Assembly: GCF_036389035.1 (NCBI RefSeq)
Contig: NZ_DASVQQ010000027.1
Origin: Jatrophihabitans sp.
GTDB taxonomy: Bacteria > Actinomycetota > Actinomycetes > Mycobacteriales > Jatrophihabitantaceae
Direction: 5' to 3' (one strand)
Length of the DNA stretch: 64,000 bases
Positions within the stretch are counted from its first letter, which is position 1. Each line of letters opens with the position of its first letter. This document shows positions 36,884-45,375 of the stretch, piece by piece. The notes under the pieces were generated by a model that saw nothing but the letters and a program-made list of their open reading frames with translations, did not search any database and had not been told where the DNA came from. The position numbers were made by a program, and so were the translations under genes.

Positions 36884-37510
36884 TCAGTGGCCGCGGGCGA
36901 TCCACTCCTCCAGCTGCGGCGCCTCTTCACCGATCGTGGTCGAGTCGCCGTGGCCGGTGCGCACCACGGTGTCGGCCGGCAGGGTGAAAAGCTCGGAGCG
37001 GATGGTGTCCAGCAGCGTGCCGAAGTTGGAGTAGGACCGTCCGGTGGCGCCGGGGCCGCCCTTGAACAGCGTGTCGCCGCTGAACACCGTTCCCAGCTCG
37101 GCGGCGTAGTAGCAGACCCCGCCCGGCGAGTGCCCGGGGGTGTGCCGCGCCTCGATGGTGACACCGGCGGCCTGCACCTGCTCGCCGTGAGACAGCGGCA
37201 CGAACTCGAAGTCCGGATAGAGCTGGCGCCACAGCATCTCATCGGCCGGATGCAACCGGACCGGAGCCCCGGTGGCCACGTGCAACTGCCGGGCGGCCGT
37301 CACGTGATCGTCGTGGGCGTGGGTGCACAGGATGGCGGTCAGCTGCCGGCCGTGGATCAGCTCCAGGATCGGCGACAGCTGATGCGGAGCGTCGATGACG
37401 ACGCACTCGGTGTCATTGCCCACCAGCCAGACGTTGTTGTCCACCTCCCAGCTGCCGCCGTCGAGGTTGAACGTCCCCGAGGTGGTGGTGTGCTCGATGC
37501 GAGCGCTCAT
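36884..37510 (-). CDS. MBL-fold hydrolase, partner of mscR (Rv2260-like)
   Basis: THAHDDH, HTPGHSPG, FSGDTLF, RTGHG. Confidence 0.9.
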   Translation of the reverse strand: MSARIEHTTTSGTFNLDGGSWEVDNNVWLVGNDTECVVIDAPHQLSPILELIHGRQLTAILCTHAHDDHVTAARQLHVATGAPVRLHPADEMLWRQLYPDFEFVPLSHGEQVQAAGVTIEARHTPGHSPGGVCYYAAELGTVFSGDTLFKGGPGATGRSYSNFGTLLDTIRSELFTLPADTVVRTGHGDSTTIGEEAPQLEEWIARGH

Positions 37511-37515
37511 CGGTA

Positions 37516-37677
37516 GTCTCCGCTCTTCGCGCTAGCGCTCATCGCCAGCTGAGGTCCGCTCCTCGGCGCTGCGCGCCTGCGATGCTCCCTCATCCGTTGT
37601 CTCCGCTCTTCGCGCTAGCGCTCATCGCCGGCTGAGGTCCGCTCCTCGGCGCTGCGCGCCTGCGATGCTCCCTCATC
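37516..37677 (-). repeat. MIRU-like intergenic tandem repeat, two ~79-bp units (period 83), each a 28-codon mini-ORF
   Basis: Units start at 37516 and 37599 and are near identical. Mini-ORFs 37676-37590 and 37593-37507 are linked by TGATG/ATGA overlaps. Confidence 0.9.
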
Positions 37678-38773
37678 AGGCCTCCTCGTCGAAGACGACC
37701 ACCGAACGCAGCACGTCGCCGTTGTGCATCTTGGTGAACGCCGCCTCGATGTCGCCGATGCCGATGGTCTCGGTGACGAACCTGTCCAGCGGCAGGCGCC
37801 CTTGCAGGTAAAGCTCGATCAGCATCGGAAAGTCGCGCGAGGGCAGGCAGTCGCCGTACCAGGAGGACTTCAACGCGCCACCGCGGCTGAAGACGTTGAG
37901 CAGTCCCAACTCGATCTTGGCCTGGGGTTCCGGAACGCCGACCAGCACCACCGTGCCGGCCAGGTCGCGGGCCAGGAATGCCTGCTTGTAGGTCTTGGGC
38001 GTGCCGACCGCGTCCACCACCACGTCGGCGCCGAAACCGCCGGTCGCCTCCCGGATCGCCTCCACCGGATGGGTGGTCGTGGAGTTGATCACGTGGGTGG
38101 CGCCGAATTCGCGGGCGGCCACCAGCTTTCGCTCGTCGATGTCGACGCCGATGATGGTCGTCGCGCCGGCCAGTCGCGCCCCGGCGATCGCCGCCATTCC
38201 CACCCCGCCACAGCCGATCACGGCGATCGAGTCACCCCGGCCGACCCCGCCGGTGTTGATCGCCGCGCCCAGGCCGGCCATCACGCCGCAGCCGAGCAGG
38301 CCGGCCACCGTGGCCGAGGCCTGCGGATCGACCTTGGTGCACTGACCGGCGGCGACCAGCGTCTTGTCGGCGAACGCGCCGATGCCCAGCGCCGCCGAGA
38401 GCTCCGTGCCGTCTTCCAGGGTCATCTTCTGGGTGGCGTTGTGGGTGTTGAAGCAGTACTGCGGCCGACCCCGGCTGCAGGCCCGGCACTGGCCGCAGAC
38501 CGCCCGCCAGTTCAGGATCACGAAGTCGCCGGGGGCCACCTCGGTGACGCCCGCGCCGACGCTCTCGACGACGCCGGCGGCCTCATGCCCCAGCAGGAAC
38601 GGAAAGTCGGCGCTGATGCCACCGTTGCGGTAGTGCAGGTCGGTATGGCAGACCCCGCAGGCGCCGATCTTGACCACGGCTTCGCCCGGACCGGGATCCG
38701 GGACGTTGATCGTGACCAGTTCGACCGGCTGGTCCTTGCTGCGGGCGATGACGGCGCGGACTTGTTGGCTCAT
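37676..38773 (-). CDS. mscR: S-(hydroxymethyl)mycothiol dehydrogenase / S-nitrosomycothiol reductase
   Basis: [55 protein letters not shown]. Confidence 0.92.
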
Positions 38774-44141: not shown

Positions 44142-44528
44142 TCAGCCGACCAGCGTCTCCAGCAGGTGCTGTAGTTGCCTCGCCGGGTCCCCGGTCACGC
44201 CGCCGTGGATCGGCCCCGGTTGGATGACGGTGCTGCGTGGAGCGGCCAGCCAACCGAACCGCTGGCCCAGGCTGATCCCGGCCCCGGCGACCGGATCGGC
44301 CTGACCGCAGCAGTGCGCCTCGATGGCCGCCAGCGCCGACCGGGTCGCCTCCAGGTCGAGCTCGGGCGCCAACGCCAGCAGCCGGGCCTCCTGCAGCCGG
44401 CTACCGGCGCACAGATAGTCGGCGCTCTGGCTGTAGAGCACCACCCCGACGTTGACGAACTCCTCCCGGTCCACCCGCGGCACGCAGCGCAGCACCACGT
44501 ACTGGAACCCGTGCCGGCTCATGGTCAT
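44142..44528 (-). CDS. DUF3037 family protein
   Basis: FQYVVLRCVPRVDREEFVNVGVVL, RFGWLAAPRSTVIQPGPIH. Confidence 0.9.
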   Translation of the reverse strand: MTMSRHGFQYVVLRCVPRVDREEFVNVGVVLYSQSADYLCAGSRLQEARLLALAPELDLEATRSALAAIEAHCCGQADPVAGAGISLGQRFGWLAAPRSTVIQPGPIHGGVTGDPARQLQHLLETLVG

Positions 44529-44614
44529 CGGCTCTTCGCGCAAGCGCTCATCGCTGCCACTCGCTCCGGTCCTCGCTCATGCCGCTCGCTGCGATCCTCG
44601 CTCATGCCGCTCAT
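44525..44614 (-). repeat. MIRU-like spacer encoding a 29-codon coupled mini-ORF
   Basis: Shares 23/24 nt core GCTCTTCGCGC(A/T)AGCGCTCATCGC with 37522 and 37605; ATGA overlaps at both ends; internal 25-bp duplication. Confidence 0.85.
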
Positions 44615-45375
44615 GCCGCGACCGCCCTCGGCAGCCAGTTGCGGTCGCCGGCCAGCCGGGCCAGCAGGTAGTCCAGGTAGCGCTGGCGCACCGCGGCGGG
44701 CTCGGCGTTCTCCGGCTCCAGCCACTCGTCCGGAACCTGGGCCAGCACCTCTTCGAGCAGCCGGCGGTCGACCAGCGGCGCCAGCGCCCGGTCGGCCTCG
44801 GCCACTCCGGCGACATGGGAGACCAGCGCGTGCTCCGATGCGTCGTAGGGCTGCCGGGCGAAGCGCTGCGGATCGGCGCCCGGCCGGGACCAGCCGTGGT
44901 GGAAGTACAGCGCGGCGCCGTGGTCGATCAACCATAGCCGGCGGTGCCAGATCAGCAGGTTCGGGTTGCGCCAGCTGCGGTCGACATTGGCGGTGAACGC
45001 GTCCAGCCACAGGATGCGGGCCGCCTCCGCCGGGTCGGCCGGATAGCCGGCGTCCCAGCCGAACGAGCCGGGCAAGAAGTCGACGGCCAGGTTCAGCCCG
45101 ACGCTGGCGTTGAGCAGGTCCTGCACCTCTTGATCCGCCTCGTAGCGGGCGATCACCGGGTCCAGCTCCAGGGCTCGCAGCTCGGGGACGCGCAGGTCCA
45201 GCCGGCGGGCGAGTTCGCCGACCACCACCTCGGCCACCAGCGCCTTCAAGCCCTGACCCGCGCCCCGGAACTTCACCACGTAGGTGCCCAGGTCATCGGC
45301 CTCGACGATGCCGGGCAACGAGCCGCCCTCGCGCAACGGGGTCACGTAACGGCTGGCCTGCACAGTGCCAATCAC
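44611..45375 (-). CDS. HipA-like Ser/Thr kinase
   Basis: Gly loop REGGSLP, YVVKF lysine, catalytic NVDR..NPN, IDHG. Confidence 0.85.
   Translation of the reverse strand: MIGTVQASRYVTPLREGGSLPGIVEADDLGTYVVKFRGAGQGLKALVAEVVVGELARRLDLRVPELRALELDPVIARYEADQEVQDLLNASVGLNLAVDFLPGSFGWDAGYPADPAEAARILWLDAFTANVDRSWRNPNLLIWHRRLWLIDHGAALYFHHGWSRPGADPQRFARQPYDASEHALVSHVAGVAEADRALAPLVDRRLLEEVLAQVPDEWLEPENAEPAAVRQRYLDYLLARLAGDRNWLPRAVAA

Follow-up and report, generated by a model that had tools for sequence, protein, structure and literature searches.

Within a 64,000-nucleotide stretch of the genome of Jatrophihabitans sp. (contig NZ_DASVQQ010000027.1; this whole stretch is called the window in the following), the genes for S-(hydroxymethyl)mycothiol dehydrogenase (mscR) and for a hydrolase of the metallo-beta-lactamase (MBL) fold are separated by two copies of an 83-bp repeat. 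Each copy forms a small open reading frame (mini-ORF) which overlaps with its neighbors at both ends, so that an uninterrupted chain of stop and start codons leads from mscR to the hydrolase. This arrangement raises the question of what kind of element occupies the junction and how it is tolerated between the two genes. A preliminary description, made from the letters of the window, had proposed a dispersed element family resembling MIRUs, the interspersed repetitive units of mycobacteria. In our view the repeat is probably a MIRU-type, largely selfish or neutral element that entered two ancestral stop/start overlaps, was tolerated via a rebuilt chain of overlaps and has since drifted in copy number. 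As an intercistronic element of the MIRU type it belongs to a sequence family that is apparently undescribed and stands apart from the canonical MIRU motifs.

Relays of mini-ORFs at two junctions of the window

Tandem Repeats Finder (TRF) reports a period of 83 with 2.1 copies and 96% matches at positions 37506-37677 of the window. The features of the mscR/hydrolase junction are as follows, with their basis in brackets:

37676..38773, minus strand: mscR, S-(hydroxymethyl)mycothiol dehydrogenase, 365 aa (ORF and NCBIfam TIGR03451)
37679..37690, minus strand: GACGAGGAGGCC, a 4-codon C-terminal extension of mscR encoding DEEA (orthologues without the extension)
37594..37676, minus strand: repeat unit 1, 83 bp (sequence, TRF and nhmmer family profile with E 1e-15, the profile including the units of the window)
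37590-37676, minus strand: mini-ORF 1, 28 codons, opening on TGATG and closing on ATGA (ORF reading)
37511..37593, minus strand: repeat unit 2, 83 bp (sequence, TRF and nhmmer family profile)
37507-37593, minus strand: mini-ORF 2, 28 codons, with an ATGA overlap at each end (ORF reading)
37648..37660 in unit 1 and 37565-37577 in unit 2, minus strand: hairpin GGCGC-GCA-GCGCC, within the variable part of the 5' module (minimum free energy and centroid structures)
37605..37625 in unit 1 and 37522-37542 in unit 2, minus strand: conserved 21-nt core ATGAGCGCTAGCGCGAAGAGC, beginning with the second in-frame ATG
37594..37604, minus strand: 11-nt tail of unit 1, GGAGACAACGG
37511-37521, minus strand: 11-nt tail of unit 2, GGAGACTACCG
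36884..37510, minus strand: gene of the MBL-fold hydrolase, 208 aa, the downstream cistron (ORF and Pfam Lactamase_B)

The mscR product reaches 662 bits against TIGR03451 (cut-off 513), and the hydrolase protein matches the hydroxyacylglutathione hydrolase model of NCBIfam with a score below that model's cut-off. mscR ends on GCC TGA with the stop codon at 37676-37678, and the A of this stop doubles as the A of the mini-ORF 1 start codon (TGATG). Mini-ORF 1 in turn ends on an ATGA that it shares with the start of mini-ORF 2, and a further ATGA joins the end of mini-ORF 2 to the start codon of the hydrolase gene. Sequence, ORFs and TRF agree with what had been described beforehand: the TGATG/ATGA/ATGA relay, the 83-bp units and, to the letter, both peptides. 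Each unit consists of a 51-nt 5' module, the 21-nt core and the 11-nt tail, which resembles a Shine-Dalgarno (SD) sequence and runs into the next ATGA. Within the 5' module ATGAGGGAGCATCGCAG is followed by the variable hairpin and then by GAGGAGCGGA..., and the tail of unit 1 contains an SD-like GGAG located 7 nt ahead of the next ATG. Because the unit length is 2 mod 3 and (A/G)TGA is present at both ends, every copy constitutes a complete mini-ORF in itself, its stop codon lying in a 4-nt overlap with the next start.

The end of mscR itself deviates from its orthologues, which terminate in VVVF*, VVVL* or VVVFE* without DEEA. The DEEA-coding stretch contains an SD-like GAGGAGG positioned 4 nt ahead of the first mini-ORF ATG. 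Judging from these comparisons, this part of mscR was probably derived from the junction or from the element, the end of the gene having been rewritten by repeat dynamics. In locus L124, a close relative, the repeat array is closed by ACGAGGGAGGCCCG, a near-copy of the DEEA-coding string.

The same locus was recovered in independent metagenome contigs, of which X2 and X3 contain one unit and X1 breaks within the repeat. The repeat is therefore not an assembly artefact, a possibility that the three contigs contradict.

The 24-mer core named in the preliminary description has three matches in the window, whereas none is expected from 100 shuffles. One of these matches belongs to a second member of the family located between two other genes:

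44611..45375, minus strand: gene of a HipA-like kinase (HipA_2, PF20613), upstream of the second copy (Pfam)
44525..44614, minus strand: second family member with one 29-codon mini-ORF (MSGMSEDRSERHERGPERVAAMSACAKSR), core match at 44531-44554, E 4e-15 in a search whose profile of 17 long-form units includes this copy
44142..44528, minus strand: DUF3037 gene (PF11236), downstream of the second copy (Pfam)

The second copy lies approximately 7 kb from the mscR junction, and both copies are co-oriented with their own flanking genes. Here, too, the ATGA at the start of the mini-ORF holds the stop codon of the kinase gene, and the mini-ORF's own stop overlaps the ATGACC of the DUF3037 gene. In common with the 83-bp units it has the core GCGATGAGCGCTTGCGCGAAGAGC and the 5' module ATGAGCGAGGATCGCAGCGAGCG... 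Its 5' module is also a 25-bp tandem duplication (44555-44612, 2.3 copies, 90% matches) with one ATG out of frame.

Bare and occupied junctions among relatives

A 20-kb neighborhood in the window shows synteny to Jatrophihabitans telluris (CP097332) throughout, and the HipA-like kinase is 89% identical to a protein from a metagenome-assembled genome (MAG) of the Jatrophihabitantaceae. Synteny and nearest proteins thus identify the host as a relative of Jatrophihabitans and not as a Mycobacterium. The nearest DNA matches among the compared loci came from an uncultured Actinomycetota MAG (88%) and from a Jatrophihabitantaceae MAG (80-83%). The window itself is contained in a 459-kb contig of a JGI soil metagenome.

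The pairing of mscR with the hydrolase gene is widespread. In 80 metagenome loci with relatives of the hydrolase, mscR is retained upstream in about 60, mostly overlapping with the hydrolase gene or within approximately 20 nt of it (for example CTCTGATGGCC and GAATGACG). Both the mscR/hydrolase junction (junction A) and the kinase/DUF3037 junction (junction B) are bare in J. telluris (L206) and in the complete MAG OY969101 (L207): mscR and the hydrolase gene meet there as GTGA and TAG-GTG, the kinase and DUF3037 genes as ATGA and GTGA, respectively. The bare overlaps at both junctions indicate that the additional sequence was acquired. Within the subclade of the window the junctions are occupied, in each relative differently:

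Junction A, L205: 40-nt spacer consisting of a decayed core and tail, without start codon
Junction A, L204: TGA, a 10-nt SD spacer and one 83-nt unit (28 codons closed by ATGA)
Junction A, contigs X2 and X3 of two other metagenomes: exactly 83 nt skipped, corresponding to a one-unit allele as represented by short-read contigs
Junction A, window: 2 x 83
Junction A, L124 (mscR 97.5% identical): two 66-nt units without AAGAGC and tail
Junction A, a 96%-identical relative (JGI 3300041965): 145-nt spacer, with a second spacer of 108 nt
Junction B, L208: one 86-nt unit
Junction B, L204: one 86-nt unit and, sharing the reading frame of the gene, a 51-nt 5' module
Junction B, window: one 29-codon ORF
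Junction B, L205: ATGA overlap, the first 25 nt of the gene resembling the 5' module (L205:10762-10790)

In these relatives with their differing copy numbers and unit lengths the relay closes wherever the start codon of the mini-ORF survives. Even in L124, where the two 66-nt units are fused to a single ORF of 49 codons, TGATG is found at the start and ATGA at the end. Together with the bare sites this supports the earlier proposal that the unit, by means of its own start and its terminal ATGA, keeps the chain of overlaps intact. The near relatives provide an unusually clear natural series, the overlap being either bare or filled by a decayed unit, by a single one, by a pair, or by a fused pair of shorter units. 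Because the chain of frames is kept across this series while the peptide is not (see below), it represents comparative evidence of selection on the relay.

Remnants of the element appear to be used as N-terminal coding sequence in L205 and L204. The start of the DUF3037 gene in L205 is, from its sequence, probably a deletion scar that would now encode MSEDRGER ahead of the conserved HGFQYVV. In L204 (10848-10900) the whole 5' module is in frame with the DUF3037 gene as called (143 aa).

Regarding transcription, a soil metatranscriptome contig (X26) from a relative connects the 5' portion of the hydrolase gene, across one unit, with the 3' portion of mscR, with 8+1 mismatches. This contig fits weakly with a polycistronic RNA in a relative carrying the one-unit allele.

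Other inserts were observed at distant orthologous mscR/hydrolase junctions. L163 (700-870) contains two copies of a GTGAGTGAGCATCG... element, L127 (2434-2492) three copies of GTGAGTGAC, and L193 (2273-2492) a 219-nt insert with GACCGG repeats. In L136 (1529-1567) we found a 53-bp stretch matching the canonical MIRU motifs B+A, which indicates that the same mscR/hydrolase junction was struck by different families.

Distribution and orientation of the repeat family

Outside the window the 21-nt core ATGAGCGCTNGCGCGAAGAGC was detected in at least 120 loci by an exact-pattern scan with one genome per species, the window's own genome not being among the matches listed. Counted by record title among the matches listed, which gives numbers of loci and not proportions, 51 belong to Mycobacterium, Mycolicibacterium or Mycobacteriaceae, 40 to Actinomycetota MAGs, 18 to Jatrophihabitantaceae and 3 to Pseudonocardiales. 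One locus each among these matches is from Frankiales, Nakamurella, a Mycobacteriales MAG, Cryptosporangium, Hamadaea, Acidimicrobiales, Dehalococcoidia and Myxococcota. No core was found in the IMG/VR viral contigs and PLSDB plasmids searched.

The family occurs in two forms. In Mycobacterium and Mycolicibacterium the core and a tail of approximately 11 nt make up tandem arrays with a period of 31-33 bp (short form, e.g. ATGAGCGCTTGCGCGAAGAGCAGAGGACACCG), each unit being an 11-codon ORF that closes as ATGA on the following unit. The long form of 75-86 bp, to which the units of the window belong, is present in Jatrophihabitantaceae, Nakamurella, Pseudonocardiales and several MAGs. It carries a 5' module of approximately 51 nt ahead of the core, composed of RTGAGYGAGCATCGCAG, a variable segment and GAGGAGCGGAGCGA... 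An alignment of 17 long-form units (3 from the window and the remaining ones from 12 further loci) contains 22 invariant columns. Searching all collected loci with the nhmmer family profile revealed no long-form copies beyond those already seen.

To determine the orientation of the arrays, the strand of the flanking genes was called on 300 nt on each side of relay-type arrays, requiring an open frame, a GC content at third codon positions (GC3) of at least 0.75 and a higher GC content at first than at second positions (GC1 > GC2). For arrays with both flanks unambiguous, 41 were sense/sense, 3 antisense/antisense and 5 mixed. The ratio of 41:3 between sense and antisense is significant in a two-sided binomial test with p = 1.6e-9. 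The commonest pattern downstream consists of the ATG of the core, 11 codons, a -4 overlap and then an ORF of at least 80 codons with high GC3. Applying a strict rule that accepts only -4 or -1 overlaps, an unbroken relay into the gene was found for 48/95 arrays on the downstream and 46/101 on the upstream side. The strict relay is thus intact in only about half of the arrays, and coupling is therefore frequent, not universal. A control based on ATGAG sites was a poor null for the relay because in-frame internal ATGs count as gene starts, and we relied on the orientation test instead.

Among units with RTGA 5-16 nt past the core, the 11-nt tail is present in 60/95, and 71/95 have a period of 2 mod 3, the length class required by a -4 relay. 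An SD-like match of at least 4 nt at -16 to -4 occurs in 34% of units in comparison to 9% of other RTGA sites. The second copy in the window, the loci elsewhere and the sense bias all speak for the dispersed MIRU-like family that had been proposed. Random orientation and a lack of overlaps at other copies, which the preliminary description had named as the outcome contrary to its proposal, were not what we observed: the orientation is strongly biased and relays are present on both sides of the arrays.

Relation to MIRUs and competing explanations

MIRUs (Supply et al. 1997) have been in use for the typing of tuberculosis since 1997. They measure 40-100 bp, are present in approximately 40-50 copies per genome within operons and are polycistronically transcribed (PMC3184786). 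The ends of their ORFs overlap the adjacent genes, filled sites show short direct repeats, and the elements contain imperfect inverted repeats (PMC3184786). They insert at start codons, carrying a -4-coupled ORF (PMC12548453), and the function proposed for this arrangement is to let the element insert with minimal consequences for the downstream gene coupled to it (PMC3184786, PMC12548453). According to these published accounts, the mechanism that the preliminary description suggested for our element is that of MIRUs.

The repeat studied here shares most of these traits. With 83 bp it falls into the size range of MIRUs, lies inside an operon and is co-oriented with the flanking genes. Its small ORF overlaps the neighboring stop and start codons (-4); the overlaps are TGATG, ATGA and ATGA in the case of junction A and twice ATGA in that of junction B. 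The tandem copy number varies among relatives (1, 2, 2 x 66, decayed), and short direct repeats at filled sites as well as imperfect inverted repeats are present. The likeness does not demonstrably extend to the sequence. Compared to the MIRU motifs as quoted in PMC6286618 (A, TGACGAGGAGCGGCGCAGATGGCA; B, GGCGCCGGTGACGATGCAGAGCGTAGCGA), the unit reached a local alignment score of 20, while shuffles averaged 21.5 +/- 4.6 and 620/1000 of them scored at least as high. On this basis homology to the canonical motifs A/B has no significant support. For other members of the family 88-833 of 1000 shuffles scored as high or higher, and only the 10-mer CGAGGAGCGG is common to the unit and the MIRU motifs. 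A fuzzy motif search returned one canonical-like copy (in L136) and chance-level matches to short-form units. The host, furthermore, is Jatrophihabitantaceae-like and not Mycobacterium, although the short 31-33-bp module does occur in Mycobacterium and Mycolicibacterium. In contrast to MIRUs the element is modular, with a 51-nt 5' module and a 32-nt module that alone forms the mycobacterial 31-33-bp relay arrays, and the direct repeats at the best-preserved insertions measure 12-14 nt, not 4. The mechanism attributed to MIRUs may carry over, whereas a homology to their canonical motifs could not be demonstrated. Full-text literature searches yielded no account of the core sequence, nor of MIRU-like elements outside mycobacteria. 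The locus presents the MIRU design in a different sequence family outside Mycobacterium, and its long form is linked to the 32-bp arrays of cultivable mycobacteria.

Other known systems resemble the element in part. Like repetitive extragenic palindromic (REP) sequences and bacterial interspersed mosaic elements (BIMEs), which are associated with Y1 transposases (REP-associated tyrosine transposases, RAYTs), it is short, GC-rich, dispersed and partly palindromic. REPs, however, are hairpins outside genes that have no phased ORFs and are often found in either orientation, whereas the element described here shows a sense bias, 2-mod-3 lengths, start/stop overlaps and weak folding. Miniature inverted-repeat transposable elements (MITEs) such as the Correia elements of Neisseria, the enterobacterial repetitive intergenic consensus/intergenic repeat units (ERIC/IRU) and the Rickettsia palindromic elements (RPEs) are likewise small non-autonomous repeats that are co-transcribed and tolerated in transcription units. 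They feature terminal inverted repeats and target duplications, and RPEs keep reading frames open. In our element the corresponding features are an 11-pair imperfect inverted repeat and direct repeats of 12 and 14 nt at two insertions and of 4-29 nt elsewhere. None of the MITEs named provides a chain of self-contained ORFs that docks on stop/start overlaps, and neither in sequence nor in host are they related to our element. Delivery upstream ORFs (uORFs) and engineered bicistronic designs (PMC12548453) also use a short ORF to bring the ribosome to an overlapping downstream start; they are single, locus-specific or engineered, in contrast to a repeat family found at many junctions.

According to the reading we favor, the element would have landed in the ancestral stop-start overlap of mscR and the hydrolase gene, and the copy number would have changed later through slippage or unequal recombination. 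Ribosomes leaving mscR would re-initiate on mini-ORF 1, then on mini-ORF 2 and finally on the hydrolase, aided by a GGAG that lies 7 nt ahead of each ATG, and the mini-ORF peptides would be by-products. The element would be tolerated because each unit rebuilds the chain of stop-start, mini-ORF and stop-start, the hand-over of ribosomes down this chain making an insertion near-neutral for the coupled downstream gene. We infer hand-over, near-neutrality and the means of spread from comparing sequences; copy number may plausibly tune the expression of the hydrolase. How MIRUs spread and whether relay ORFs pass ribosomes on is unsettled in the literature searched.

Several observations weigh against this reading, in which translation of the mini-ORFs and their coupling are predicted from the sequence. 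The GGAG in front of each ATG could drive independent initiation, so that a hand-over may not be needed. On either side about half of the arrays are intact and the remainder gapped or decayed, and L205 has lost the coupling. The 64 kb of the window plus the syntenic loci show just two occupied junctions. K-mer counts in run X1 put the depth over the unit at about 2x that of the flanks, which means that this exact subfamily is not highly repeated there. Finally, the RNA contig X26 stems from a relative and may reflect carried-over DNA.

If the peptides mattered, the mini-ORFs would be genuine small-protein genes, giving a function to the Arg-rich micropeptides that the preliminary description had considered, and their ATG starts, SD-like sequences and positions suited to efficient translation agree with this. 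We regard it as very improbable, since the two units of the window differ at three sites which are all non-synonymous (P/L, N/Y, G/R) and mismatches across 21 degenerate cores are unbiased with respect to codon positions 1, 2 and 3 (10:13:14). The most variable site of the core is a first codon position that toggles between Cys (87), Arg (73), Ser (5) and Gly (1). At junction B of L204 and L208 the core is read in the +1 frame, giving an unrelated C-terminal peptide while the ATGA end is kept, in L124 the units are fused, and Pfam gave no match for the three mini-peptides. These patterns show a lack of conservation of the peptide. That the junction was simply duplicated in tandem on the spot, as an ordinary variable number tandem repeat without dispersed family or mobility, is hardly more credible. 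The copy number does vary locally, and tails and flanks share junction sequence, GGAGGTTCGATGAG being found on both sides in L204. However, the same 5' module and core recur at an unrelated junction of the window and next to many genes in at least 120 loci of several families, and the relatives' bare overlaps at both junctions point to acquisition.

The main alternative is that the repeat acts chiefly in cis as an RNA or DNA structure, be it an mRNA stabilizer or processing site, a start-masking stem or a REP-like protein site, which sets the ratio of mscR to hydrolase with the frames being incidental. It can coexist with the relay model, and as the chief explanation we hold it to be unlikely. 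In its favor, the 5' end of the unit GAGYGAGCATCGC and the start of the core GCGATGAGCGCTC form an imperfect inverted repeat of 11 pairs, with 94.7% of cells pairing across the 17 units. A hairpin whose position is fixed but whose sequence varies is present in about half of the units, and 4/5 of its pairs change on both sides across the family. The first helix, however, shows no compensatory changes, and the second pairs in 77% of cells and splits into two subfamilies. Single-sequence folding energies of RNA and DNA on either strand did not differ from shuffles (z -2.0 to +1.3), the RNAalifold consensus was weak (-10 kcal/mol with a covariation term of -0.7), and Rfam at E <= 1 returned no family match, only two chance snoRNA-like hits. 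Moreover, structure alone leaves the 2-mod-3 lengths, the ATGA ends and the 41:3 strand bias unexplained. The region of the start codon is complementary to a segment just past GAGGAGCGGA (37671-37675 with 37633-37637 and 37588-37592 with 37550-37554), as TGAGG/CCTCA in the window, ATGAAC/GTTCAT in L079 and GATGAG/CTCATC in L002, and such a complement is also found in L124. By base complementarity a start-masking stem is possible, with differing sequences in three lineages, and most other units are without it.

The remaining alternative concerns the spread of the element and is compatible with the favored reading. It assumes a non-autonomous transposon, MITE- or REP/RAYT-like, that is moved by a dedicated nuclease, the relay ORF being what survives selection after insertion. 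We consider this a tentative option. Consistent with it are the imperfect terminal-like inverted repeats, the patchy distribution among close relatives and direct repeats flanking single-unit insertions: 14 nt at junction A of L204 (GGAGGTTCGATGAG), spanning the start codon and the native SD, and 12 nt at junction B of L208 (GCATGAGCGAGG), spanning the start codon. In addition, the element's initial bases change in step with the beginning of the gene downstream of it (GTGAGT/GTGAGT in L117, ATGAAC/ATGAAC in L079), and partial copies of 12-29 nt are present in L011, L013, L044 and L073. The repeats in these six loci may represent duplicated target sites, partial units in terminal position or microhomology. 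Against it, the length of the direct repeats taken over all insertions varies between 4 and 29 nt, and they could have arisen from incomplete unit copies or from microhomology; the core is also absent from the viral contigs and plasmids searched.

A further-reaching version is that the 21-nt core defines one widespread superfamily of start-codon-targeting mobile DNA, which would unite the mycobacterial 31-33-bp minisatellites with the 75-86-bp long forms, insert at stop/start overlaps, duplicate 12-14 nt including SD and start codon, and be moved by an enzyme. This is conceivable, though we would rather doubt it. If it held, it would bear on how MIRUs themselves move, and scars of the element would supply N-termini (DUF3037 in L205) as well as C-termini (DEEA of mscR). 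For annotation, spacers of this kind call for caution, as they can shift the starts and ends of genes.

The core was also found in a third context, in which it is followed by CCGCCGCCGCGCGAGCGC... and thereby forms an inverted repeat of approximately 11 bp (GCGCTCGCGCG / CGCGCGAGCGC) just past gene ends in Jatrophihabitantaceae MAGs (L003, L005, L007, L017, L024, L027, L028, L032, L041, L047, L054-L057, L063, L070 and L101). This combination looks like a REP- or terminator-like hairpin reusing the core of the relay element.

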